Part shown: positions 1,355 to 38,721 of the stretch, piece by piece | Numbering within the stretch: position 1 is the stretch's first letter | Layout of the letters: each line of letters starts with the position of its first letter | IMG/VR virus record: IMGVR_UViG_3300024331_000122 | Span: 1-38,721 of that record | Length of the DNA: 38,721 nucleotides | Reading direction: 5' to 3' (one strand) | Source of the DNA: a virus | Taxonomy: Duplodnaviria > Caudoviricetes | Position numbers and translations under genes: made by a program | The notes under the pieces: generated by a model | Seen by the model: the letters and a program-made list of their open reading frames with translations, nothing else | What the model was told of the DNA's origin: nothing | The model's database searches: none

Positions 1355-1606
1355 TTATTCGCTTGCTCGATCGATCGCCGGTATCGCCAACCACTCCGGA
1401 CTCAGCCCCGCAATTTCCTCGGGACTCAAACTGCGCCGCACATGAAACGCCAGCCCCTTCACTTCGATCCGCGACGGCTCAACTCCGACGCCGTTCAACT
1501 GCCGCCACGCCACCTCGATCACCGCGCACCGCTCGTCCAAATTCCACCGGATCGCCGGCTTCGGCTTTCCCGTCAAACTCAACCGACTGACTGAGGCGTG
1601 CCACAC
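1355..1606 (-). CDS. Hypothetical early protein
   Basis: ORF fills the gap in the co-directional early operon; start uncertain. Confidence 0.5.
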   Translation of the reverse strand: MWHASVSRLSLTGKPKPAIRWNLDERCAVIEVAWRQLNGVGVEPSRIEVKGLAFHVRRSLSPEEIAGLSPEWLAIPAIDRASE

Positions 1607-1630
1607 GGGCCGCCCTTCGAATGCGTCTAG

Positions 1631-1750
1631 TCACTTGTTCACCGTCAAAATGATCGACAGCCGCCCGACGATCCGCCGGTACTTCGGTAACGCCGTCTCA
1701 TACGCGCGCGCACACGGATTCTGGTAAGCGAAAAGCTGCGCCTCTGTCAT
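1631..1750 (-). CDS. Small hypothetical protein (39 aa, MTEAQLFAYQ...)
   Basis: ATGA overlap with upstream small ORF. Confidence 0.5.
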   Translation of the reverse strand: MTEAQLFAYQNPCARAYETALPKYRRIVGRLSIILTVNK

Positions 1751-1845
1751 CGGTTCACCATCGGGATCACCGCACCAGCGAGCAGCGCGAGAATGAACGC
1801 GCCGATCAGAAACAGCACCACGCGAAGTGGAGTCCCTCGCCTCAC
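1747..1845 (-). CDS. 32-aa single-pass membrane peptide (not in ORF track)
   Basis: MRRGTPLRVVLFLIGAFILALLAGAVIPMVNR; GTGA overlap upstream and ATGA overlap downstream. Confidence 0.65.
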   Translation of the reverse strand: MRRGTPLRVVLFLIGAFILALLAGAVIPMVNR

Positions 1846-2129
1846 GCTGCTGGCCTCTTCCAGTCGTCAAACAACGGGCCGAACGTCTCCCAGGCAATCG
1901 CTTCAATCGTTTCGTCGTCCATGACGAGGCCAAAGCTCTGCGGATCCGGAGGGTGGACTTCGCGTGCAGCTGGCAGTGAGGCGAGCCGTGCAGTTACTGG
2001 AGAAGGTGCTTGCAGCCCCCGCGACTCCAACGGCTCTAGTGGTCTGCTTGGAGTGATGCCCCGATCCCCGACCACGGTACCGGCCTCCGTCGCAACCCCA
2101 CCGCCAGCATCTTGTGAAAAATCGCTCAT
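1842..2129 (-). CDS. Hypothetical early protein
   Basis: 95-aa ORF with 4-nt overlaps on both sides. Confidence 0.6.
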   Translation of the reverse strand: MSDFSQDAGGGVATEAGTVVGDRGITPSRPLEPLESRGLQAPSPVTARLASLPAAREVHPPDPQSFGLVMDDETIEAIAWETFGPLFDDWKRPAA

Positions 2130-2311
2130 GCCGCCCTTCGCAACTGCGGCTTCTGAATCGCGCGCAGCGTCTTATCCGCATCCGCACACCGCGCCGCGAC
2201 CAGCGCCTTCACTTCACGCACCAGCATGCGGACTTCACCTGCCATCCGCGCCTGCCGTGCCTCCGCCTCAGCCAACCGCCGATTCATCCGAACTAACGTC
2301 GCCTTTCTCAT
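2126..2311 (-). CDS. Small basic coiled-coil protein
   Basis: GGAGG RBS, ATG 2311 overlapping the cro stop. Confidence 0.65.
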   Translation of the reverse strand: MRKATLVRMNRRLAEAEARQARMAGEVRMLVREVKALVAARCADADKTLRAIQKPQLRRAA

Positions 2312-2598
2312 GCCGCTACCTCCTGGGGGGATTGAGTTCGACGCCGGCTCGTCTCGGATGCCGCCAACAGTTCGTTGCACGCATCCAGCAAGGGCCGTGA
2401 CATCGTGTTCCCTTCCAGTAATTGCGACAACCGCGGCGCCGGATTTTTCCCACCCGTCTTTTCAACGTAGTGGCGACATACGTCCGCCTGACTGATTCCC
2501 GCCTTCTCCAGGCGTTGTTTCAGCGAGCGCATCTCGCCAACAAAACGCTTGCGTTCTGCGCGTCGCTTTGCTATCGTCTGTCTGTCTGTTCTGTCCAC
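2308..2598 (-). CDS. Cro-like HTH regulator (probable GTG start 2598)
   Basis: LKQRLEKAGISQADVC...RLSQLLEG HTH pattern; divergent from repressor; first gene of the leftward operon; ends QEVAA. Confidence 0.75.
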   Translation of the reverse strand: MDRTDRQTIAKRRAERKRFVGEMRSLKQRLEKAGISQADVCRHYVEKTGGKNPAPRLSQLLEGNTMSRPLLDACNELLAASETSRRRTQSPQEVAA

Positions 2599-2635
2599 GC
2601 CATGGACAATACATGTATCAGGCATGGCCTGTCAA
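2592..2635 (-). promoter_or_regulatory. Lysis/lysogeny switch: leftward sigma70 promoter with overlapping palindromes
   Basis: Minus strand TTGACA (2635-2630), 18 nt, TATTGT (2611-2606); palindromes TGTCCA-N5-TGGACA, ATACATGTAT, AGGC-atg-GCCT. Confidence 0.7.
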
Positions 2636-2644
2636 GAGGTTTTT

Positions 2645-3004
2645 GTGAACGATCCAAAAAAGAGTCCCGTGCCGGAAACGCCGGAGCAGTTCAATAAGCG
2701 AGCCGAAGAACTCCGGCGGCGAGAAAAGTGGTCAAAATCCAAGCTCGCTAAGCGCCTCGGCGTGGGAGAGCGAACCCTCTACAAGTACCAGGATGGCAGC
2801 ATCACCCCGAGTCCCAATAGCATCCAGCGCTTACTCGATCTGATGGAGGATCCCGACGCGCCGCTCCCCGCTGAAGCGGGAGCACAGAATCTTCTGGATC
2901 AGGTCAACGAGCGCTTCAACCGTATCGAGAACCAAAACTTCGAACTCGCAAAGCAACTTGCCGAACTCCGCGGCATGCTGATGGCGCTGAGAGGTAAACC
3001 ATGA
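2645..3004 (+). CDS. CI-like XRE-family repressor with C-terminal coiled coil, no peptidase S24 domain
   Basis: EELRRREKWSKSKLAKRLGVGERTLYKYQDGSITPS HTH; AAGAGGT RBS before GTG 2645; divergent from cro. Confidence 0.85.
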   Translation: MNDPKKSPVPETPEQFNKRAEELRRREKWSKSKLAKRLGVGERTLYKYQDGSITPSPNSIQRLLDLMEDPDAPLPAEAGAQNLLDQVNERFNRIENQNFELAKQLAELRGMLMALRGKP

Positions 3005-3345
3005 AGAGAGCCACATTCACAATCGCCTTTTTCTGTTTGCTGATCCTCGGATTCAGCGTTCTATACGTGCCATGGAAGGCAGAGTTGCCAGCGGGCCACG
3101 GCGCCGCGACGGGACGAGTCGCCTATAAGGGCCACGCTTGGCTCTGGCACCCTCCAGTCCCCGGTGAGAACGCACCTGCAGCTTTGCCGGCCGATTTCTT
3201 CGAGCGCAGCTCCCACAGTGATCCCCTGGCCGAGTACCTTCGCGTCGACTGGCCAGCGCTGTTCGTGCAATGCTTGGCGGTCCTTCTCTTTTCGGTCGCT
3301 CTGATCTCCGCCACTCACTATGTCCAAACGCCGCGGAAATCGTGA
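3001..3345 (+). CDS. Two-TM membrane protein, candidate superinfection-exclusion factor
   Basis: Hydrophobic segments near both termini; overlaps cI stop and int start; loop contains LPADFFER. Confidence 0.75.
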   Translation: MKRATFTIAFFCLLILGFSVLYVPWKAELPAGHGAATGRVAYKGHAWLWHPPVPGENAPAALPADFFERSSHSDPLAEYLRVDWPALFVQCLAVLLFSVALISATHYVQTPRKS

Positions 3346-4549
3346 AGGCTCGATATACCAGGATGCAAGCCGCAGGTGGCGCGCGGAACTCTGGCTGGGA
3401 TATCGCAACGGCAAACCCTGGCGCAAAAAGTTTAGCGGCCGCACTCGTGAAGACGTCGCGAAAAAGCTGAACAAGGAACTCGCCGACACCCACCGCTCCG
3501 AGGCGCCCGAGCGACTCACCCTCTCCGACTTCCTGGACACCTGGCTCCGCGACGTCGCCAAGAATCGCGTTCGCCCATCGACCTACTCCGGATACAAAGA
3601 CAAGATCGAAACCCACCTGAAACCGGGACTCGGCCGCGAGCGCTTACGTACACTCCACCCCGCCGTGCTGCAGCGCTTCTTCAACGAACGCCAGCGCTCA
3701 GGACTTTCAGCGACCAGCGTCCGCGATATCCGTTCGGTCCTTCGCAACGCGCTGCGCACCGCGGTCACCTGGAAAATGATCTCGACCAATCCAGTCGCCG
3801 ATACGGATCCGCCACGCCGGCGCGAACGCGCTCCGACGATCTTGGATGAAGCACAGTCCAAACGCTTCCTGCGTCACTGCGCGAAGCACCGTCTCGGGGA
3901 TCTCTTCAAGCTAACGCTCTACACTGGCATGAGCCGCGGCGAAGTAACGGGACTCCCTTGGTCCGCCGTCGATCTCGACAAAGGCACGCTCGCGATCGAG
4001 CAAGCACTACAGCGCGTCGACGGCGAAGACTCTGGAGACGGGAAGAAGAAAAAGAGCCGGCTGGAAATTGTGGAGGTGAAGGCCGCGAGTCGGATCCGCG
4101 TGTTGGAGTTGTCGCGTCCGATGGTCGCCGCGCTCGAAGATCAGCGACGCCGGCAGCTGCGCGAGCGGAACACGTCGAAGTACTGGAAGGAATCGGGCCT
4201 GGTCTTTACGACGCCGATAGGGACACCGCTTGAGCCGCGCAACCTCGGCCGCGAACTACATGCGCTGTTGAAAACGGCCGGCCTGCCGCAGATCCGCTTT
4301 CACGATCTCCGCCACTCGGCCGCGAGTCTGCTGCTGGCCGAAGGCGTTCACCCTCGCGCGGTCCAGGAGCTGCTGGGTCACTCAGATTTTCGGGTAACGA
4401 TGAACGTGTACTCGCATGTAATCCGGCGCGTGAAGCGCGACACCGCCGAGACGATGTCGCGCATTCTGTCCGGTCCCGTCAGGAGCAATTCTGGGAGCAG
4501 CGCCCGTGAGAAGCCACGGATGCGCGCGATACCCGGCGGACGCAAATAG
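3320..4549 (+). CDS. int: Tyrosine integrase (arm-binding, SAM-like and catalytic domains)
   Basis: N-terminal GSIYQ...WRA arm domain; FHDLRHS, LGH and YSH catalytic motifs; box I reads TGMSRGE. Confidence 0.97.
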   Translation: MSKRRGNREGSIYQDASRRWRAELWLGYRNGKPWRKKFSGRTREDVAKKLNKELADTHRSEAPERLTLSDFLDTWLRDVAKNRVRPSTYSGYKDKIETHLKPGLGRERLRTLHPAVLQRFFNERQRSGLSATSVRDIRSVLRNALRTAVTWKMISTNPVADTDPPRRRERAPTILDEAQSKRFLRHCAKHRLGDLFKLTLYTGMSRGEVTGLPWSAVDLDKGTLAIEQALQRVDGEDSGDGKKKKSRLEIVEVKAASRIRVLELSRPMVAALEDQRRRQLRERNTSKYWKESGLVFTTPIGTPLEPRNLGRELHALLKTAGLPQIRFHDLRHSAASLLLAEGVHPRAVQELLGHSDFRVTMNVYSHVIRRVKRDTAETMSRILSGPVRSNSGSSAREKPRMRAIPGGRK

Positions 4550-4555
4550 TTGATT
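4543..4555 (-). promoter_or_regulatory. IHF-binding consensus
   Basis: AATCAACTATTTG matches WATCAANNNNTTR. Confidence 0.7.
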
Positions 4556-4594
4556 CGCGGACGCCGTGGTATCCTACGACTGAGCCGCCCCTGA

Positions 4595-4639
4595 TTCGTA
4601 AAGCGGGGGTTGTCGGTTCAATTCCGATCTTCGGCTCCA
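4595..4639 (+). other. attP core = 3' half of tRNA-Thr(CGT), anticodon loop to CCA
   Basis: TTCGTAA loop, AGCGG, GGGTT, T-arm GTCGG-TTCAATT-CCGAT, acceptor CTTCGGC, T, CCA fit tRNA positions 32-76; 5' half absent. Confidence 0.9.
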
Positions 4640-4642
4640 TCT

Positions 4643-4655
4643 TATCAATCACTTA
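4643..4655 (+). promoter_or_regulatory. IHF-binding consensus
   Basis: TATCAATCACTTA matches WATCAANNNNTTR. Confidence 0.7.
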
Positions 4656-5380
4656 CCGTCAGCAAGATCTCCCTCGGGAGCAGCGTTGGGAGCAGTTGGG
4701 TCAGCTCCTTCGCCGTTCGACGCTCCTGCTGCCGTTTCCGCCTCCGCGCTGGCCACCGTAGTCGATTCTCCAGCGTTGCCTTGCTGAGTCTCGATCGCCG
4801 GCGGTTTTTCTTCCGTCAACGCCGGGGGATTCGGATCCGCAGGTACGCGGATTAGCTCGGCGCCCTTCTCCTCCTCGGCCGGCATCTCCAGACCGCTCGC
4901 CGCCCACACCGCATCGATGCCAGTTCCTTCTTCGCGCGACTCCGATTCGTCATAGATGCGACGCACTTCATCGCTCGGCGTTGCCGGAAACCGTCCTGTG
5001 AGCTGAACGTGGGGAGCGTCGGGAAACGTCCGCCAGTTCGCGCCGCACACCAGACCTTCACGCGCCATCGCCGCTTCGATCGCCGCCCACATCGGATCGT
5101 TTGCGTTCCAGCGAATCCGCGACTGGCGGTCGTGACCAATCGGTGCGACGTCGACGGCTAGTCCAAATTCATGCCAGCCGTAACCAGGCGCAGCGTTAGT
5201 TACCTTCGGCCCAGGTGTGGTGCGACCTTTCGCGTAAAGCTCGGCTTGTTCTTCGTGCGTGCGCAGTCCCGCACAAACCACCACGTCGATATCGTCAGCC
5301 TCCAGCGCCAAGGCTGCCGCCTTCACCTTCGCCGCTAACAACGGATGAATCCCTAACAGCTTTCCAAATTCTCGAATCAT
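4649..5380 (-). CDS. Endolysin, peptidase M15 family (L-Ala-D-Glu peptidase type) with acidic C-terminal tail
   Basis: GLRTHEEQAELYAKGRT...VTNA.PG.GWHEFGLAVDV...DAPHVQL; ATG 5380 after GGAGGAG, ATGA-coupled. Confidence 0.92.
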   Translation of the reverse strand: MIREFGKLLGIHPLLAAKVKAAALALEADDIDVVVCAGLRTHEEQAELYAKGRTTPGPKVTNAAPGYGWHEFGLAVDVAPIGHDRQSRIRWNANDPMWAAIEAAMAREGLVCGANWRTFPDAPHVQLTGRFPATPSDEVRRIYDESESREEGTGIDAVWAASGLEMPAEEEKGAELIRVPADPNPPALTEEKPPAIETQQGNAGESTTVASAEAETAAGASNGEGADPTAPNAAPEGDLADGK

Positions 5381-6006
5381 TGTTTCTCTCCTCCTCCAGT
5401 TGTGACTTCTCCCGCTTTCCACTCGTCCCCGTCCACCTCCACCGGCAACGCACTGCCCGGCGGTCCCAAATACTTCTTGTCGAGCAGATACTTGTGATCG
5501 AGCTTCTTTCTGCGGCCCGACAGGTACGACTGCGCGAGTTCGATGTTGCGCCCGTGTGTCACCAGCACTCGATGCCCGCCGCGGCGCTTCAACTCGTCCA
5601 GGTGCTTGTCGAGTTTCGGTAAAAACTTCTTCGCCCATGCATGAAACGATTCCCCACCTGGCGTGGCGACGTTCGGCTGCCGATGCGCCAGGTGTTTCAG
5701 AATCGGCATGACGTCGCGGACCTTCTGCCCTTCATGCGCGCCCGGATCCCACGTCCGCAGATCCCGGTCCGGATGAACTTGCGCGCCGGTGATGTGCGAA
5801 ATGATCTTCGCCGTCTCCGCCGCGTGCTGAAGGTCCGAGTGATAAATGGAATCGACGGGAAACTTCGAGAGGTGCGCGCCGATCCGCAAGGCTTGCTTCT
5901 GGCCCTTGTCCGTAAGCGGCAATTGCAGGTGACCGCGCACACGTTCACCATCCGCCTTGTTGAGCTCCGTAGCTCCGTGGCGGACTAACCAAAGTGTAGG
6001 TTTCAA
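5377..6006 (-). CDS. Histidine phosphatase (phosphoglycerate-mutase-like) family protein
   Basis: WLVRHGAT, YHSDL, PGGES and VLVTHG motifs. Confidence 0.92.
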   Translation of the reverse strand: MKPTLWLVRHGATELNKADGERVRGHLQLPLTDKGQKQALRIGAHLSKFPVDSIYHSDLQHAAETAKIISHITGAQVHPDRDLRTWDPGAHEGQKVRDVMPILKHLAHRQPNVATPGGESFHAWAKKFLPKLDKHLDELKRRGGHRVLVTHGRNIELAQSYLSGRRKKLDHKYLLDKKYLGPPGSALPVEVDGDEWKAGEVTTGGGEKQ

Positions 6007-9000
6007 TTTCCCCTCATCGCGCGGACCGCCGCGTCCAGTTCACCGCGCAGCTTCACCTGCTCCTCCGGAAGATAGTGAGGCAGCGTTTTCCCCTTCGCCT
6101 GCAGAAACGCCAGCAGCTTGCGCTTCTCCTCCGAAGTCGCGTACTTCCACTCCCGCAGCGACTCATCCAATGGCAACCGCCGGAACTCGCGCACCAGGGG
6201 ATCCACCTGGCTATCGCGCTCGATTCGAGTCTTGTCCGCCGGCGTGATCTGTCCGCCGCGCAGTGCGTCCACCACCGCTTGTTTGTTTCCGCCGGCAAAC
6301 TCGCGCCGCAGTCCGCTCATGACGTCGCGATGCTCCGACTCGGCCTGCGTTCGCCCACCACCCGGAATGTGCTTCGCTATGTAGCTGCGCATCTCGTTCT
6401 CGAGCGGCGATCGCGTCATGTAGCCTGGCGCCGGCGTGATGCCGAAGAAGCCCGCAGCCGATTTCCCGATCGACTCACCGGATCGCCGTCGCTGTTGAAA
6501 GTTGCGGATCGAGAACGGTAGGAACTGCTCGCCCACGTACTTCATTTCCTGCAGCACCTGCTTCACCACCGGATCGTCCGCGTGCCGGATCTCGGTACCG
6601 TAGTAGTCCTGATTGTTCAGCATCGCCACCACGGCGGCCGCCAGCGGGTGAAGCTTGTGGCCGATCGTTCCAATCACATCGCGCTTCACCGCGAAGACGT
6701 CCTTCATGTAGGTGGCCAGCTGCACGCGCTCCGGACGTCCTTGCTCGTCCACCTTCCCCGTTCGTGGAAAGAAATAATCGCGCGGATCCTTCGGCACCTC
6801 GCCCGTCGATACGTAGTTCAGTACCGCGCCCGCCCAGCCCGCGACAATCGGCAACGCCATCACGTACGCGGCGCGTGGACCAAGTCTCACCGGACGGTGA
6901 CGCACCGCATCGTTCGACATCTTCACCATGTCCATCGCGCCGCCGCCGATCTCGCGGATCGATCCGAGATTCCAGCCCAGCGATCGCACCGACGCCATGC
7001 CCAGGTCCTTCACCGCCTTGTTCCAGAACAAATTGTCGTAGACGAACTGGCCCATGCGATTGTCGACGGAGTCCCACGCCTCGCCGAGCCGCTGACGGAT
7101 CACATCGCGCGGCGCGTCCGGACCCAGCCGCTCGACCTCCATCTCCGCCATCTTCGCGAACACGCCCAGCTTGAGCCGCGGAATCAGGTGCTCCATCAAT
7201 GGCGCTGCCACCTTTTGCAGTGCTGCCGGAAACGCCTTCAGTCCCGCCTTGCCCCACTCGCCGTTCTTCCACGCTTCGAAAAACTGCTGCGCCGCGGTCC
7301 CCTTGAAAAACTCATCCATCCGGACGCGGCCGCCGCCCGTCACAACGGCGTCCGCCAGCTTCGTCATCTCCGCGTAGCGTCCAGGTGACAGATACTCCTT
7401 CAGCAGCCGGTTGCCTTTCAGATAAGTCACAATCGGGGATCCCACCAGCGACGCTGCGCGAGCTGCCGGCGCAGCAGCCTTTCCAAACTCTCCGCCGGCG
7501 ACACGTTGGAATGCCAGTGCCAGATCGGACGTCGTCGCGTCGAGCGCCGCGAACATCGCGTGGAACGCCGACACGCCCAGCTGCGCCTGGTTCAGTACGT
7601 TGCTCGCCGTGCGCCATGCTTGATACACCGCGTTGCGTCCCAGCCCGGGCGACAGGTAATTGTTGACGACGCGCGCCACGTCCTTCGGCATCCAGTAGCG
7701 GCCGCGAATGATCAATCCGCCGGCGTCCACCGTGCCGCTGCCGGTTCCAATCACCAGCGACGGTTTGATTTTCCGTAACGGCTGCAGTTCCGGATGCGCA
7801 TCGATCACCGCTTCCAGTGCTGCCTTTGCCTTCGGTGCGACGCGCTCCAACAATTCCGGTGTGTGAACGTACGCGTGGATCAGATTCGCTTCCTGCTCCG
7901 CGCGACGCTGGACGTACTCGCGAAAACCTTGATCCACGTTCTCGCCGGCAAAGCGCTGGTCCGCAAGATTGCGCAGCTCCTGCGCGACGCCCGGCGTTTT
8001 GTTCAACTCGGTGTGTAGCCGATACCGCCGCCCGATCTCGTGGCCGATCTCATGCGTCAGCACACTCTCCGGACCGCCGAACCGTGTCTCCACGATGCCC
8101 GGTTTCGACAGTCCCCACGCACCGCGTTCTCCCTTGATCGTTGACGTGCGATCATGGCGGATCTTCAGGTCCTTGGCAAACTGGTTCAACTGATCCATCA
8201 GCCGCTCGTCAAACGCTTCCTTGACGTTCACCTTCGAGCCGCCGTAGACGGTCGTGATCGCATCATCGACGGTGGCCCAGTCTTGCGGACCCTTCTTGAA
8301 GATCTCGACATAGCGGGCCAGGTGCCGGTCGTTTAACTCCTGCATGATCCGGTGCGCGGCCAGGTACTTATCCATTTCAAAAAGTTTGATCGCAGTCAGC
8401 CGTATCGGATTCGATGACACGGGACGCAGGCCTGCCTCAATGCCCTCGCGCGTGGTGGGAATCGAGCGCTCCTTCAAGAACGCCTTCGATCCTTCCAGCG
8501 GCGCGGCCTTCCCGAGCAGTCCCTTCAGGATCTCCGCGGCCTTGCTCGGCTTCTCCCAAATGTGCGGGAAATAATTCTGGATCCACCGCTCCAGCTTGCC
8601 CGTGCCCAGATCCTGGATTGCTTGCCGGCGTCGATCGAGTTCGCGACGCAACACGTCCGCCAGCCGTTGATCCGCTTCGGTGAGCTGTTGCGCACCCTGC
8701 TCCATGCGATCGATGAAGTCCATGTTGGCGTTGATGCCGCGCTGATCCATGCGCCGGATCTCCGAGTCCATCGCCTGCAGGAACTGCTCCTTCACGCGCG
8801 CGATCTCCGCCGCGTTCTCGCGGATGGTTCCCTTGGCGACGTCCGCCGCCTTCACGCTTTCGAACGTTCGCCGCATCTCGTCGCCGATCGCCGCCGCGAT
8901 TCTTTGCTTGTCCATCCCCGGCAACGTCTGCTGCTGATCCGCCACGCGCTTCGGCACTCGCGCCGCCGCGGCGTCTTCCCCATGCTCCGCGGCCGCCCGC

Positions 9001-11594
9001 ATCGCATCACCTGCAGGACCCGGCAGCCGCAGACTCTCGCGGACCGGCGCAGCTTCGGCCGGTGGTGGACCTTGAATTGTGTTCAGGGTTCGCTCGCGCT
9101 CTGTCTGGTTCTTGCGATCGATCTCCGACCGCGAGTAGTCCTTCACCACCTGATCCACAATTTTTTCAAGTTGCTCGACGCGGCGCTGAATCTCAGGTGG
9201 ATAGTTGCCGTCCGGATAATCGCGAACGTAGCCGCTCCACTCTTTGTCGAACTTGGGCAGATCCTTCATGCCGTAAACGACCTGGCCGGCCTTCACTCGC
9301 ATCGCCTCGCCGCGCTCGAAGAAATCGGCCGGTAAACTATCCGGCGCGATCTCCAGCAGCTTCAACTTCGATTGCGTCTCACGCACAATGCGGCCGGCAT
9401 CGCGCACAGCATCTTCCATGCCGGGGATCTTCAGGCCGAGCTGCTCAGGTTGGGATTGGGAAAGTAACTCGAAGAGACTTGCTTGCGGGGTAGGGGAACT
9501 GCGTCGTACTCGAGCCGCATCGCCGAACAGCGACGGGCCTGGGTCAACCCACGGTTTTTCTACGTCGCCTTCGGCGCCTTCTGCCGCTGGTTCGCCGCCA
9601 GATACTGCTTCACCTGCGCCGCCACCAGGTGCTTGTCCTTGGGTAAGAGTCTTGGAAACCTCGTCGCGGATGGCGTCGTAGGCAGACTGTTTAACGGCTT
9701 TTGCGTTGTCTCCATTTGCTAACCTTTCCGCGGCCGCGTTCAGCGCCCGCCCAATCGGTCCTTCGTACGCGCTCAGGCGATTATACAGTTCTTCGGCTTG
9801 CGCCGCACTCTGAGAAATTTCCGCGTTCTTATCCGTCGCGATCACGTTGCCGGCGCGGCCCAGTTCCTCAGCACGCCCTTCCTTCGCGACGAAACCAAAC
9901 AGCCGGCGTTCGCGCGCCAGGCGTTCCTTCACGTACGCGGAGATCTCCGCTTTCTCTAACGCGAGATTCCGCGTTTGATCTTCCATGCCGAACAACGTGG
10001 ATTGCGTCGACGTGTGCTCGCCGGCGCCCTTCGTGAATCGCGCCAGCTCCTGCACCGTGTCGTCAGAAACTTTCTTGCCCTTCTCCTCGGCGTCCTCGAT
10101 CAGCTTGACGATCGACCACTGCTGCGCGGGATCCGACGTCGTGTCACCGATCGCCACCGCGCGATTCAACGGAATGTCACGCGCCACCACTCGATCGAAC
10201 AGTGGAGCGTCGAGCCTGGCCAGTGCGAGTCCCTTGTTCGCCGTCGCCTCGCCCAGCGAGATTCCCTCCGCCTCCAACTCCTCGCGCGTGAATCCGGAGT
10301 CGCGGAAAAACTTCGCTGCGTCGATCGGTGTGCCGCGGCCCTCGGCGATATTCTGCAACGCGCCGATCGCCCGCGCTGTCGGCGCGTCCGGTGCTTCGAG
10401 CTTCATCACGTTCATCACGGGCTGTCCGGTTCGCCGCGCGAGCTCGAGCCGGTGGTGTCCGTTGATGACGTACGTGCGCCCGTCCGCCGGATCGTCCCAC
10501 ACCGAGATCACGCCGCCGAGGTTCGGATTGAATTTCTTCTGCTCCTTCAGCAGATTCCCTACGCCCTCGGCGCCGGTGTCGAGTTTGAACTGGAAGCGCT
10601 CCGGATCCACCGCAATGTCTTGCGTGCGCATCGGACCCACCTGGCCGTCGCCGGCGCGAAGGTTCACTTGCGCGCGCGTGTCGGGCTCCACTGGCTTCTC
10701 TTCGAAGAAGTCCGCCGGTAATGTGGCGGGTGGTGCAGCCGGTGGTGTTTCTTCTGGTAGTGCTGGCAGTGCCTCCGGTACTGCAGGAGCAGCTTCCGGA
10801 GGCATGGCAGCAGCGCGACGCACCGCCGGGGATGGGGATTGGGGGGTGGCCGGTGCTTCGCGAACTTGTGATGGACGTGTACCTGGCGCCTGCACTTCAG
10901 CAGGAGGTGGTGCGCCGACAGGACGTGGCGCGCGCAAACTATCGCGAATCTCTTTCGCGTACTTCGGAACGAACGGACCGAACAGCACAGCCGCCTCGCC
11001 GACTGCCCCGCCAAGATCACCAGATCCCGCCGTTTCTCCAACGCCGGCGGCGAGAGGTCCATACATTGGCACAGCCGCCGCTGCGAGGTGCCCCAGTGCT
11101 TCCGTGCGATGTCCCGCGTCGATCTCTTCGCTCGCACGGCGCACCTGGTCAGCCTGCGGCTCGTACAACATTTTTCCTGATCGATAAGCGAAAAGAGCAC
11201 TCTGGCCTGCGGCGCCTCCTCCAGCACCCGTATAAACTCCAATTTCCTCGGGAGTCTCCGGCGGCATCGCGCCCGCGCCCACCGTTTGAGCAGCGAACGT
11301 TCCAATGCCGAGACCAGCGCGCCCAGCGCCCTTTCCAATACCCTCTATGAAGCCTGTATCGGGCTTGCTCTCGACGTTCATCACGTCGCCGATCTTTTTG
11401 AGGTATGGCGTCAGGACGTCCGCGGCCTCGCCGAGTCCCATCTCGTCAACAATCGATCCGGGTGTTAACGGGGGTTTCGGCTTGCGCTTTGGCACATCAG
11501 AGGTGCCAGCTTTGGATTCAAAATCGAAACTGGCAGGGAGCGTCTTCGGCGCTTCGTCAAAGAAGTGCGCCGGCAGTGTCGCTGGTGCTCCCAA
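6003..11594 (-). CDS. Giant internal virion/ejection (polyvalent) protein with ParB-like domain and HEXXH metallopeptidase-like motif
   Basis: 1863 aa, last of the ejection genes; ISVWDDPADGRTYVINGHHR (ParB/Srx fold), THEIGH, helical C-terminal region; repeated LPAxFF motif. Confidence 0.8.
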   Translation of the reverse strand: MGAPATLPAHFFDEAPKTLPASFDFESKAGTSDVPKRKPKPPLTPGSIVDEMGLGEAADVLTPYLKKIGDVMNVESKPDTGFIEGIGKGAGRAGLGIGTFAAQTVGAGAMPPETPEEIGVYTGAGGGAAGQSALFAYRSGKMLYEPQADQVRRASEEIDAGHRTEALGHLAAAAVPMYGPLAAGVGETAGSGDLGGAVGEAAVLFGPFVPKYAKEIRDSLRAPRPVGAPPPAEVQAPGTRPSQVREAPATPQSPSPAVRRAAAMPPEAAPAVPEALPALPEETPPAAPPATLPADFFEEKPVEPDTRAQVNLRAGDGQVGPMRTQDIAVDPERFQFKLDTGAEGVGNLLKEQKKFNPNLGGVISVWDDPADGRTYVINGHHRLELARRTGQPVMNVMKLEAPDAPTARAIGALQNIAEGRGTPIDAAKFFRDSGFTREELEAEGISLGEATANKGLALARLDAPLFDRVVARDIPLNRAVAIGDTTSDPAQQWSIVKLIEDAEEKGKKVSDDTVQELARFTKGAGEHTSTQSTLFGMEDQTRNLALEKAEISAYVKERLARERRLFGFVAKEGRAEELGRAGNVIATDKNAEISQSAAQAEELYNRLSAYEGPIGRALNAAAERLANGDNAKAVKQSAYDAIRDEVSKTLTQGQAPGGGAGEAVSGGEPAAEGAEGDVEKPWVDPGPSLFGDAARVRRSSPTPQASLFELLSQSQPEQLGLKIPGMEDAVRDAGRIVRETQSKLKLLEIAPDSLPADFFERGEAMRVKAGQVVYGMKDLPKFDKEWSGYVRDYPDGNYPPEIQRRVEQLEKIVDQVVKDYSRSEIDRKNQTERERTLNTIQGPPPAEAAPVRESLRLPGPAGDAMRAAAEHGEDAAAARVPKRVADQQQTLPGMDKQRIAAAIGDEMRRTFESVKAADVAKGTIRENAAEIARVKEQFLQAMDSEIRRMDQRGINANMDFIDRMEQGAQQLTEADQRLADVLRRELDRRRQAIQDLGTGKLERWIQNYFPHIWEKPSKAAEILKGLLGKAAPLEGSKAFLKERSIPTTREGIEAGLRPVSSNPIRLTAIKLFEMDKYLAAHRIMQELNDRHLARYVEIFKKGPQDWATVDDAITTVYGGSKVNVKEAFDERLMDQLNQFAKDLKIRHDRTSTIKGERGAWGLSKPGIVETRFGGPESVLTHEIGHEIGRRYRLHTELNKTPGVAQELRNLADQRFAGENVDQGFREYVQRRAEQEANLIHAYVHTPELLERVAPKAKAALEAVIDAHPELQPLRKIKPSLVIGTGSGTVDAGGLIIRGRYWMPKDVARVVNNYLSPGLGRNAVYQAWRTASNVLNQAQLGVSAFHAMFAALDATTSDLALAFQRVAGGEFGKAAAPAARAASLVGSPIVTYLKGNRLLKEYLSPGRYAEMTKLADAVVTGGGRVRMDEFFKGTAAQQFFEAWKNGEWGKAGLKAFPAALQKVAAPLMEHLIPRLKLGVFAKMAEMEVERLGPDAPRDVIRQRLGEAWDSVDNRMGQFVYDNLFWNKAVKDLGMASVRSLGWNLGSIREIGGGAMDMVKMSNDAVRHRPVRLGPRAAYVMALPIVAGWAGAVLNYVSTGEVPKDPRDYFFPRTGKVDEQGRPERVQLATYMKDVFAVKRDVIGTIGHKLHPLAAAVVAMLNNQDYYGTEIRHADDPVVKQVLQEMKYVGEQFLPFSIRNFQQRRRSGESIGKSAAGFFGITPAPGYMTRSPLENEMRSYIAKHIPGGGRTQAESEHRDVMSGLRREFAGGNKQAVVDALRGGQITPADKTRIERDSQVDPLVREFRRLPLDESLREWKYATSEEKRKLLAFLQAKGKTLPHYLPEEQVKLRGELDAAVRAMRGN

Positions 11595-12944
11595 TCATCG
11601 CACCCACTGTTTTCCATCGAACGTATACTCGTGGCCCATGTACGTCTTCTTCTGGCCCTTCGCCGGTCCGGCCGCCGCGGTTGACTTCGACGCCGCGCGA
11701 TCGCCGGCTGGATACTCCATGTGTGCCGGCGAGCCACCAGCCGCCGCGATCTCCGCTTCGTATGCATCCTGGATCTGCTGCTTCGCGTCGCGCAGATCGT
11801 CAGGACTCATTGCCTCAGTGCGCGCTCGCTTCTCCAACTGCTGCAGCGCCGTTTGCTTCCTCGTCTCGATCGCCGCCGACTGACCAGGCGTTGCGCGTTG
11901 CGGACGCTCCGGACGATTGTCCACGTTGTACGCCGGCACCAGCAGCTTGCGCGCTTTATAGCCACGCACAAATTGCTGCTCCTCCTGGTTCTTCGGACCG
12001 CCGCGGCCCATGATCTCGCTGTAACGTCGATCGTCCACAATCGCCGGATCCGGCTTGTCTTCCTTTTCCGGCTTCAGCGTCTTCACGCGTGCCGACATAT
12101 CCAGCGTTGTGCCCGGCTTCGTGTACTTACCCGTCGCGGGATTGTAGTTCAACGTCGCCGGCGTGTCATCGTCCAGCACCACCTGCACGCGTTGCAGGTT
12201 CGGCTCCTTCGGCTCCGGACGCTCGTCGATGCGCCGGTTCTGGATGTCTTCTATTTCCCGGTTGTGCCGCTGACGTTCGATCTCCATCTCGCGGCGCATC
12301 GCTTCCGTTGCGTCGATGCCGGCAAGTTTCACCTGCTCGTCGCGCCGGCCCTTACCCATCGCCTCCTGATGCGCGGCCTCCTGCGTCGCGCGCAGGTACG
12401 GAACGTCCAGCGAGTTTGCGTACTCCTTGACGCCGTGCAGTCCACCGCTGAGTCCGGAAAACGCCGAGTTCAGCGCCTGCAGGATCTTCCCGCCGCGCCC
12501 TGGTGCGATCACCTTTCCGTCCGCGTCCTCGTACGCGCCTGCTCCCAGGTCCGGACGTCGCTTCGGCATCCGCGGAGCCTTCGCCAGTTGCGCGCGCACT
12601 TGAGCGAGATAGTCATCCATGCGTGGCACGCCCTGCTGCTGTGCCGACGGAGGTGCACCTGGTGCCGCTGCCGCAGGAGCTGCCTGGCCACCGCCAAAAG
12701 GATCCCCCACCGGATCGGGCGAAGGACCATTGTCGTAATCGGGAGACTCTTCGCGCTTCGGCGCCAGAGCGTTCAACGCTGAAACGATTCCCGCCTGTGG
12801 CGCAACTGGCGGCCGCTGCGCCGGCGCAGAATCCTTGGGAGGATTCATCAGCATGGCGGCCAGGCGCCGTTTGCGTTGCTCGGGAGTTTCTTCGCCCTCT
12901 ACCGGCTCGTCGACTTCGGATTCGGGATCCAGCAAGCTATACAT
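11595..12944 (-). CDS. Ejection (internal virion) protein 2
   Basis: Low-complexity, Cys-free, helical; sits between the pilot-like gene and the giant gene; C-terminal GQKKTYMGHEYTFDGKQWVR. Confidence 0.7.
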   Translation of the reverse strand: MYSLLDPESEVDEPVEGEETPEQRKRRLAAMLMNPPKDSAPAQRPPVAPQAGIVSALNALAPKREESPDYDNGPSPDPVGDPFGGGQAAPAAAAPGAPPSAQQQGVPRMDDYLAQVRAQLAKAPRMPKRRPDLGAGAYEDADGKVIAPGRGGKILQALNSAFSGLSGGLHGVKEYANSLDVPYLRATQEAAHQEAMGKGRRDEQVKLAGIDATEAMRREMEIERQRHNREIEDIQNRRIDERPEPKEPNLQRVQVVLDDDTPATLNYNPATGKYTKPGTTLDMSARVKTLKPEKEDKPDPAIVDDRRYSEIMGRGGPKNQEEQQFVRGYKARKLLVPAYNVDNRPERPQRATPGQSAAIETRKQTALQQLEKRARTEAMSPDDLRDAKQQIQDAYEAEIAAAGGSPAHMEYPAGDRAASKSTAAAGPAKGQKKTYMGHEYTFDGKQWVR

Positions 12945-12953
12945 AGCCTCTCC

Positions 12954-14426
12954 TCACATCGCGTACATCGGCGTGTAGTTCAACGTGCTGCTGTTCGGCG
13001 GCCCGCCGGCAGTCATCAGCGAGTTGGGTTTCTTCTTAAACGGGTTGTACACATTCGACTGGAACGGATTCGACTGCTGCTGGGTCTGCTGCTGCGGCGT
13101 GCCCGGTCCACCCGACATTGCGCGCTGCTGGCCACCCGTGCCCGGCATGCTCAGACCTTCGTCATATCCTGGATCCCCACCGTCCCATCCCGGATCGCCA
13201 CCCCAGTCCGGCGGATTCCAAATCGGACCGCCGCTGAAAATCGGAAGGCCACCATTGCCCGCCGGTCCGCCCGCACCATTCTGCGCACCGAGAAAGAACG
13301 ATTGCACCGTCGACGGCTGCTTGACCAGGTTGCCGATGTTCGTTGTCTCCTGTCCCGAGTAGCCGAGATTGCCGCCCAGCTCCTGGCCCATGATCCCTTC
13401 CAGATAACCCGTGTCACCCGTGAGGATCTGCCCCAGTCCCTGCGCGCCCGCCTGCTGGCCTTGGAACCGCGCCTGCTGGCCGGCCACCGTTCCTTGCGCG
13501 CGATTGTTCACCACCGCCTGCGTCTGGTTCGCGCGGTTCGCCGCGATGTCCTTCGTTGCATCGATGCGATTTTGCACGCCGGTGTTCAGCGCGTTCAGCC
13601 GATTGCCGAGAATCGCGTTCGTCCCCGTGATCGCCTGCTGCTGGATGTCCTTCGATGCCCCAACGTTCTGCTGCTGGATATCGCGCGACGCTCCCGTACG
13701 CTGCTGCGCCAACGTATTCGCGCGGCCGGCTTCCGTGTTGGAAATGTCCAGCTCGCCCTTCAACGCCGCGGCCGCTGCATCCTCGCCGCCCTCACGCGCC
13801 ATCTGTGCCACGGTCGCATTCATCCCCGCGCCTGGTCCGCCACCGTACGCCGCCGCGCGCCGCGACAGCGCATCCGCCGCACCTTGTTGCGATCGCCCAA
13901 ACTGGTCGCCGGCCAGCGTCAGCATCTTCGACTGTTGCTCCGGAGAGAGATCGATCTTCGATTTCTCCGCATCGCTGTAGTAGAGGCTGTTCGGGTCCTG
14001 ATACTTCAGGCTGTTCGGATCCGAATAGAACTGGCCCGCGCGCTCCTCCGGCGTCATGTACTCGCCGGCCTTCTCCTGGTCGGAGAGATAAAGCTGCTTC
14101 TGCTCCGGCTGCGAATACCCGAGCGCGTTCTTCTCGGCATCGTTGATGAACATCTGGCCTTGCTCGTCTTTGGTGAAGCCCGCGTGCTGGCTCAGGTTGT
14201 TATACGCGTCGAGCGCGCCCTGGTGCGAGTCGCTGCGCTGCTGCCGCGCCCCATTCACCATCGGATCGTAACGATCCTGCATCGTTCCCTGCAGCGCGCG
14301 GATCCGCGCGATCTGGTCCGCCGTCAGTCCGCGGTTGAACGCCGTGTTGCTCGCGTTGAGCGCACCCGCTCCGAGGCTTCCCAGCGTCCCCAGCAGTGCG
14401 AGAATCGGATCTTGCGTTGCACCCAT
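12954..14426 (-). CDS. Ejection / DNA-pilot-like protein 1
   Basis: Gly/Ala hydrophobic N-terminus, Q/A/G/N-rich, 10- and 11-residue periodic repeats. Confidence 0.7.
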   Translation of the reverse strand: MGATQDPILALLGTLGSLGAGALNASNTAFNRGLTADQIARIRALQGTMQDRYDPMVNGARQQRSDSHQGALDAYNNLSQHAGFTKDEQGQMFINDAEKNALGYSQPEQKQLYLSDQEKAGEYMTPEERAGQFYSDPNSLKYQDPNSLYYSDAEKSKIDLSPEQQSKMLTLAGDQFGRSQQGAADALSRRAAAYGGGPGAGMNATVAQMAREGGEDAAAAALKGELDISNTEAGRANTLAQQRTGASRDIQQQNVGASKDIQQQAITGTNAILGNRLNALNTGVQNRIDATKDIAANRANQTQAVVNNRAQGTVAGQQARFQGQQAGAQGLGQILTGDTGYLEGIMGQELGGNLGYSGQETTNIGNLVKQPSTVQSFFLGAQNGAGGPAGNGGLPIFSGGPIWNPPDWGGDPGWDGGDPGYDEGLSMPGTGGQQRAMSGGPGTPQQQTQQQSNPFQSNVYNPFKKKPNSLMTAGGPPNSSTLNYTPMYAM

Positions 14427-38317: not shown

Positions 38318-38721
38318 GCTTCAACTGGCTCCGCGTTCACTTCCGGGCGCTGAATCAGTCCCGCGTCATAGTTGCGTACGAAGAACTCGGCGTCCTTCTT
38401 CCACTTGCGCGGGATCTCCGACTCGCAGGTTACGCCGAACGCCGCGGCCATCGGGCAGTTCGTCCACTCGTGGCACGCCCAGTGTTCCGGCTTCAACGCC
38501 TCTTCCAATCGCCCGCCGGCACTCAAAAGAGGAAGGAGCTTGGTTTCGCAGAATCCTTCCACGTCACGCGCGATCCGAGCCTTGATGTCCGCCAGTCGAA
38601 TCGTGCAGCCGCTCGCGTCGAGCGTCGTCGCCTGCGGCGCTTCGATCTTCTCCAACGCCGTGCAGCCGCGCGCGTCGAGCGTCGTCGCCTGCGGCGCTTC
38701 GATCTTCTCCAACGCCGTGCA
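38314..38721 (-). CDS. Leucine-rich-repeat-like protein, 5' end outside window
   Basis: 19-aa repeats CTALEKIEAPQATTLDA(R/S)G, then a HWACHEWTNCP domain; frame open to the window end. Confidence 0.8.
   Translation of the reverse strand, partial: CTALEKIEAPQATTLDARGCTALEKIEAPQATTLDASGCTIRLADIKARIARDVEGFCETKLLPLLSAGGRLEEALKPEHWACHEWTNCPMAAAFGVTCESEIPRKWKKDAEFFVRNYDAGLIQRPEVNAEPVEA
38602..38721. repeat. 57-bp tandem repeat (2 full copies + partial, truncated by window end)
   Basis: 38665-38721 and 38608-38664 differ at one base (CGC vs AGC codon). Confidence 0.95.

Follow-up and report, generated by a model that had tools for sequence, protein, structure and literature searches.

Why should a phage carry, on a small predicted membrane protein encoded among its lysogeny genes, a peptide that recurs in the giant protein of its own likely ejection apparatus? 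The question is raised by the window, by which we mean the whole stretch of 38,721 bases analysed here, a whole virus record. We propose, at a rough probability of 0.55, that the 114-residue protein is a periplasm-facing decoy which would block assembly of the ejection conduit by incoming phages.

The lysogeny region and its small membrane protein

The record is that of a temperate, probably short-tailed phage. It encodes a terminase and a tyrosine integrase, and family searches (Pfam and PHROG) gave no tail-tube or tape-measure match in the window (features are collected in Table 1). The original prediction described the small gene as coupled between cI and int. The overlaps are indeed present on both sides: its start ATG overlaps the stop of the HTH gene (ATGA) and is preceded by AGAGG, and the integrase frame begins 26 nt ahead of its stop. 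The name cI is less secure; it follows from position because the upstream gene encodes an XRE-type HTH protein without a peptidase domain. As these starts and stops overlap with the repressor-like gene and the integrase, we infer that the membrane protein is made together with both in a lysogen. On the other side of the HTH gene, the divergent ORF has no Pfam or PHROG match, and a sigma-70-like site (2635-2606) is directed at it. The tRNA-like stretch after the integrase scores 21.1 bits against RF00005 (E 0.05), under the gathering score; ARAGORN finds no whole tRNA there, and the stretch was not found in the 301 Acidobacteriota genomes searched.

Table 1. Coordinates of the features discussed, on the window unless a locus is named
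Feature	Position	Strand	Basis
Divergent small ORF in cro position	2308..2625	-	ORF and gene position
XRE-type HTH protein, likely repressor, start uncertain	2621..3004	+	Pfam HTH_31/HTH_3, PHROG transcriptional regulator
114-aa predicted two-helix membrane protein, candidate decoy	3001..3345	+	ORF, hydropathy, model, scaffold relatives
Predicted transmembrane helix 1, residues 5-23, two basic residues ahead	3013..3069	+	Hydropathy, model
Mimic peptide PAALPADFFER, residues 59-69, in variable insert	3175..3207	+	Sequence, weight matrix
DPLAEY, residues 74-79, candidate second peptide of DP[YF]A type	3220..3237	+	Sequence, census
Predicted transmembrane helix 2, residues 86-104, two basic residues behind	3256..3312	+	Hydropathy, model
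Tyrosine integrase, frame overlapping membrane gene's end	3320..4549	+	PF00589, phrog_1
tRNA-like stretch ending near CCA, after integrase, likely attP core	4563..4636	+	Rfam RF00005
1863-aa giant protein, last (P22 gp16) position of ejection trio	6003..11594	-	phrog_21 and phrog_1033 matches; gene order in relatives
Motif copy 4 (L at residue 754), source or partner of 21-nt identity	9312..9344	-	
Motif copy 3 (L at residue 292), just before ParB-like domain	10698..10730	-	
Tandem N-terminal motif copies 1 and 2 (L at residues 7, 19)	11517..11585	-	
449-aa protein, middle (P22 gp20) position of trio	11595..12944	-	Gene order
C-terminal tip YxGxxY...W, candidate binding partner of motif	11598..11663	-	25-tip alignment, AlphaFold model, co-variation
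490-aa glycine/alanine-rich protein, first (P22 gp7) position of trio	12954..14426	-	Gene order
73-member two-helix family, candidate multi-specific decoys	P0005-P0077; L196:3377-4078, L205:2154-2984, L241:9677-10435		

Because basic residues stand at both of its ends, outside the two hydrophobic helices, the 114-residue protein is predicted to keep both ends in the cytoplasm and to hold its loop in the periplasm, as the original prediction required; hydropathy and the basic residues at both ends likewise predict an inner-membrane location. The AlphaFold model of the protein has low confidence (pLDDT 58). PADLOC 2.0.0 assigned no family to P0001 or to five other motif-bearing or scaffold membrane proteins.

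The peptides themselves were found where the original prediction had placed them: LPADFFER at 3184-3207 (+) in the loop, and LPAHFFDE at 11553-11576 (-), LPASFDFE at 11517-11540 (-), LPADFFEE at 10698-10721 (-) and LPADFFER at 9312-9335 (-) in the giant protein. The exact 21-nt inverted identity of 3187-3207 with 9312-9332 was likewise confirmed, and is the longest repeat of the window save the 51-nt tandem at 38614/38671. A chance origin of the peptides is ruled out by two results. With the phage's own residue frequencies, LPADFF[DE] is expected about 4e-7 times per 114-residue protein; and a weight matrix built from 51 peptides of other phages, scored over 63,111 six-frame positions of the window, gave 25.5-34.7 bits at five places, namely the four in the giant protein and the one in the loop, the next best position reaching 9.7. 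Misassembly is ruled out by a contig of another assembly, which is without differences over 1500-12000; the run behind that assembly may be the source of the window, and the contig is not independent. Given the same seven residues, identical codons would arise with a probability of about 0.007, which lends modest support to copying at the DNA level, as a hint short of proof. The loop copy has A where the consensus has T before L.

Two further features were noted in the record. The tandem at its right end is an exact 51-nt direct repeat with 57-nt spacing (38614-38721), and a histidine-phosphatase gene (PF00300; 5377-6006, -) lies between the giant protein and an M15 endolysin, overlapping the stop of the giant gene.

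Ejection genes that carry the peptide

The genes of the window trio were placed by order, size, shared tip and motif; the trio has no ejection-family match in Pfam, PHROG or NCBIfam, and the 449-residue protein has no family match at all in Pfam or PHROG. The layout is P22-like in two other motif-bearing loci, L034 and L065, where a head-closure gene (Hc3, phrog_578) is followed by a DNA ejection gene (phrog_598), the tip gene and the motif gene; the motif gene thus takes the gp16 position, and the counterpart of the 490-residue protein is the one that matches phrog_598 'DNA ejection'. The original prediction had spoken of a giant ejection protein: that role follows from the last position in gene order, as the protein has no ejection-family match of its own. 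A single ParB-like domain (residues 317-630) is recognised in it, the remainder being unmatched; against cultured phages the ParB-like region alone was matched, and a pattern search of viral contigs with the C-terminal part found nothing. The ParB-like region (9705-10646, -) is common to proteins of Prochlorococcus phage P-SCSP1 (36% over about 300 residues) and is also shared with the motif-bearing giant of G009.

The motif was sought in viral contigs in three scans (84, 27 and 32 loci) and in metagenome contigs in one (60 loci). Most of these loci are chance matches in odd frames or ordinary genes. There remain 29 distinct protein starts, the window included and the near-duplicates L106 and L182 both counted, in which two motif copies, mostly in tandem, fall among the 75 residues that open the frame; their consensus reads P-x-T-L-P-A-D-F-F-[DE]. 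The 27 proteins long enough to compare have bodies that fall into 20 unlinked groups, which means that the peptide is retained although the remainder of the protein is replaced. A motif scan of GTDB genomes returned 30 loci, none of them ejection-like or decoy-like, and 401 Acidobacteriota genomes gave 24 matches, all chance-like, against 23 with a reversed-pattern control. Queries of cultured phages with the tip, the N-terminus and multi-peptide stretches returned nothing usable.

There are also two kinds of unusual motif protein. Three proteins of about 290-310 residues (L089:4335-5273, L092:9886-10746 and L110:9856-10728) hold PDTLPPDFFD-type peptides near residue 235-255, not at the N-terminus, and have no useful PHROG match. 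The other kind is a frame of some 140 residues (L222:5128-5562, -), located in an element that looks like a satellite (Prim-Pol, HTH_17). It opens with PDALPADFFEQ and continues into a hydrophobic stretch rich in glycine and alanine, as a small-scale ejection protein would; it has no ATG at the expected start.

The middle gene that precedes the motif gene ends in a YxGxxY...W tip (25 aligned), predicted as a three-stranded sheet (AlphaFold mean pLDDT 83.7). The tip has some likeness to a WW domain, but neither a WW domain nor any other entry was matched in Pfam (25 tips), PDB sequences or Foldseek. A second peptide, DYxALAKxxGG, was first met in membrane-protein loops and then as a tandem N-terminal motif of last-position proteins; 120 of about 160 loci, the matches listed (L291-L410), were used. 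Where the upstream frame has at least 250 residues, a requirement that leaves out 7 LPxxF and, among the matches listed, 28 DYxALAK loci, LPxxF stands with the YxGxxY..W tip at 23 of 24 loci, window included, and DYxALAK, among the matches listed, with a second tip at 56 of 65, the other nine having neither pattern; these counts are descriptive, the tip patterns having been written after the tails were viewed and related phages being non-independent samples. No cross-over between peptide types and tips was seen at the LPxxF loci or, for DYxALAK, among the matches listed. The bodies of L315 and L104 are alike in sequence (41% over 212 residues), yet the two differ in both peptide and tip. The sole LPxxF exception, L111, is without the three-strand tip.

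The peptide type therefore tracks the C-terminal tip of the preceding protein, which points to peptide and tip as a candidate docking pair. The original prediction had made LPAxFF a docking or hand-off signal of ejectosome assembly; it is a conserved N-terminal signal whose type follows the preceding tip, and to that extent the claim is partly supported. As to the tips themselves, DYxALAKxxGG repeats pair with a hairpin-plus-helix tip in dozens of phages among the matches listed, and at L111/L162:3473-5368 (G013) the protein that precedes the LPxxFFE repeats ends in a helical tail.

Membrane proteins that display ejection peptides

The metagenome scan, whose pattern permitted T, A or S and L or F, divides its 60 loci into 16 ejection starts, 8 membrane proteins, 2 that are the window itself, 1 satellite-like frame and 33 background matches. 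The eight membrane loci hold seven distinct peptides, L205 and L223 being one protein. The T-L form occurs in all 7 membrane peptides and all 16 ejection starts, and in 5 of 50 background cases (Fisher p 3e-6). The motif-bearing membrane proteins represent several unrelated scaffolds, so that the membrane mimicry of an ejection peptide, which the original prediction had drawn from one gene, recurs; this supports mimicry as a recurring design. Genes beside the mimics include integrase, primase-helicase and excisionase types: L196 adjoins an integrase and a DnaB_N/AAA_25 gene, and L208 an HTH_17 gene. The mimic of L209 carries an extra SH3_3 domain. A third membrane scaffold (L208:419-1323, L216:639-1382) has three helices followed by a loop with several peptide types; L208 is frameshifted between the helices and the LPADFF peptide.

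The 73-member family combines a conserved frame with a hypervariable loop, in which short peptides stand in changing combinations. TLPxxF is found in 6 members, DYxALA in 9, PWxxY in 10, IDPKTGE in 11 and DP[YF]A in 28; the corresponding counts in shuffles do not exceed 0.34. At least two peptides occur together in 22 of the 73. In this analysis, TLPxxF and DYxALA are the two of the five loop peptides shown as ejection motifs; PWxxY, IDPKTGE and DP[YF]A may be ejection motifs too. One member has a stretch that resembles the P22 gp16 N-terminus (E 0.0011 in a 77-protein set). A query of plasmids with a family member gave nothing usable, and a shared origin of this family and the window scaffold was rejected (probability 0.1%). 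Loops with several peptides suggest an entry defence that is modular and broad in range, and which current defence catalogues lack.

The scaffold of the window protein can be written as TM1-VPW..G[YH]xxxWxPP-[variable insert]-x[VP]D..L-TM2. Its relatives were sought by profile in Acidobacteriota samples only, where 8 of 401 and 5 of 401 genomes matched, and six genes were accepted, from G089, G570 and G597. They share TM1-VPW, G[YH]xxxWxPP and the D..L block before TM2, and vary in the insert, which runs from about 5 to more than 200 residues; some inserts hold short repeats or DPW-type peptides, and others nothing recognisable. The LPADFF peptide is located exactly in this variable insert. 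Two relatives, L421 and L422, have short inserts with no recognisable motif, and the existence of such motif-less relatives means that the scaffold may have a function by itself. The relatives come from bacterial contigs, in which no adjoining ejection gene was seen; one stands near an integrase remnant at a tRNA-like site, as judged from a reading of frames. None was found in viral contigs (by protein, pattern and profile) or in cultured phages. Word-index and full phmmer searches with the 114-residue protein returned itself and the 57-residue fragment P0003, two repeat-rich proteins being rejected as spurious; the Atlas contains look-alike clusters of 75-202 unnamed proteins.

One contig deserves separate mention. 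At L419:1198-2142, 6750-7334 and about 7600-8118 (G089:C5), three scaffold paralogues with differing inserts surround a large methyltransferase gene in a defence-island-like arrangement, and this methyltransferase gene has weak type II/IIG matches.

A candidate decoy, its rivals and known systems

The proposed mechanism can be described as follows. A lysogen would make the membrane protein along with the repressor and the integrase, as the overlapping genes suggest, and the predicted topology would display the loop peptide in the periplasm. During periplasmic assembly of the ejection conduit of an incoming phage, the N-terminal peptide of the last protein would bind the C-terminal tip of the middle one. 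The loop peptide would occupy these tips, and the true last ejection protein would then be unable to dock. As a result, no channel would form across the inner membrane, and DNA entry of phages with the same peptide would be blocked. The original prediction had expected the loop peptide to co-vary with each phage's own motif, an expectation that found no support here. Sixteen related phage records were compared, of which 7 are complete to 90% or more and 5 or more encode a tyrosine integrase; a second gene with the motif is present in none of them. In these 16, the motif was not found outside the ejection gene save for two chance-like matches, and the surroundings of the integrases that were inspected showed no gene of decoy type. 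This means that the self-matching pair is known from the window alone.

The same observations allow other readings. The peptide could be a tag, read by a scaffold or portal protein or by a host envelope protein, with the membrane protein competing for the reader. The internal copies, which precede cargo domains at residues 292 and 754 and, in G004, at residue 533, lie deep inside the chain, where a packaging or ejection tag is as plausible as a docking strand; L111 carries the motif but not the tip, and a yajC-minus host also blocks P22 plating, according to a table in PMC10883804, a source used here in part. On the other hand, a tag does not call for the near-perfect pairing of peptide and tip types over two motif classes (for DYxALAK, among the matches listed), and a periplasm-facing loop could not reach packaging partners in the cytoplasm; we therefore consider this unlikely, if worth keeping in view. 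It is also conceivable, with a still smaller chance, that the loop is the bait of a sensor: binding of a conduit tip would trigger the two-helix protein or a partner, leading through depolarisation or a signal to an abortive defence. The two-helix architecture would suit such a device, as would the three G089 scaffold relatives, which surround the methyltransferase gene weakly matched to type II/IIG, and the extra domains of some mimics, such as SH3_3 in L209, but the window has no effector domain or partner gene, PADLOC gave no match, and multi-peptide loops suit sponges as well as sensors.

The remaining two readings concern what the peptide is worth to its carrier. If the scaffold has a function of its own, for example in general exclusion or in the envelope, the peptide may be a useless passenger of recent capture. 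Recent copying is suggested by the exact 21-nt identity with copy 4, motif-less scaffold relatives exist, and the self-matching pair occurs in no other phage examined (the 16 related records); yet three or more further scaffolds, unrelated to this one, carry the same motif in their loops in its consensus T-L form, and loops of this kind repeatedly contain other ejection peptides as well, which makes mere capture a distinctly improbable account. Finally, a tethered peptide might help entry by pre-positioning the conduit of a same-type phage at the inner membrane. This would need the same binding, and the evidence leaves the sign of the effect free; the position in a lysogeny operon, the satellite-like islands and the multi-type arrays fit defence better, and we give an entry helper hardly any weight.

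The periplasmic decoy thus remains our preferred reading of the window gene. A broader proposal, to which we assign somewhat less than even odds, is that the ejection conduits of short-tailed phages are joined by interchangeable peptide-and-tip locks, of which there are few types, and that key rings tethered to the membrane have arisen repeatedly in temperate phages, satellites and bacterial islands; the window gene would be a scaffold recently loaded with the key of its own phage. If this is true, two-helix scaffolds with one or several copied peptides jam every phage that uses a displayed key, and the exclusion range could be read off the sequence and reprogrammed by an exchange of ten residues.

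P22 SieA blocks at the inner membrane, and mutations that escape it lie in gp16 and gp20; the portion of PMC10883804 drawn on here describes as open the question of how exclusion proteins can recognise ejection proteins that vary so strongly. Like SieA, the window protein is a small inner-membrane protein, here by prediction, encoded in the prophage of a short-tailed phage (PMC10883804, in part). SieA has been proposed to interfere with the gp20/gp16 conduit, as far as excerpts of the same paper go, and the exclusion discussed here is likewise a proposal. Three helices are predicted for SieA, which is encoded antisense behind gene 16 and contains no LPxxF[FD], whereas the window protein has two predicted helices and a gene between repressor and integrase; within the sections used of PMC10883804, the SieA account proposes no mimicry. 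Homology to SieA was rejected (hhalign of the scaffold alignment against SieA, probability 0.5%, E 0.11; phmmer with P0001 gave nothing).

T7 offers the model for the peptide-tip pair, since a segment from the N-terminal side of its last ejection protein lies on the C-terminal part of the middle one: the N-terminal 'molecular tape' of gp16 binds the C-terminal part of gp15 in the periplasm, according to the extract used of PMC8954989. The tape comprises residues 157-228 behind a transglycosylase domain (same extract of PMC8954989), whereas a 10-residue tandem peptide and a tip of about 22 residues are found here; that extract describes no decoy (PMC8954989), and the likeness to T7 is an analogy. 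The giant protein also resembles the polyvalent proteins with DdrB-like ParB domains, having a ParB-like domain within a long multi-part chain, but short N-terminal repeats and membrane mimics are no part of that account in the passages taken from PMC5512222. The HXS periplasmic defence blocks DNA entry, with escape mutations in T7 gp15 and gp16 (PMC13128918, in part). It consists of four genes with radical-SAM enzymes (PMC13128918, again in part), and none of its parts was seen in the window; the words mimic and decoy are absent from its main text (PMC13128918).

In the literature searched, which covered few subscription papers, we found no description of exclusion by ejection-peptide mimicry. 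At the level of sequence, what is new here is the LPADFF peptide type with its tip, the scaffold family with a variable insert, and the multi-peptide loops; the feature is real, and it would be a variant of entry-blocking exclusion if the function holds. A ten-residue mimic, if true, gives a testable answer, for one class, to the question of how exclusion proteins recognise their targets. The peptide on the tip would then be one probable contact within the as yet unsolved P22-like conduit, and sequence alone would predict which phages a lysogen or island shuts out.
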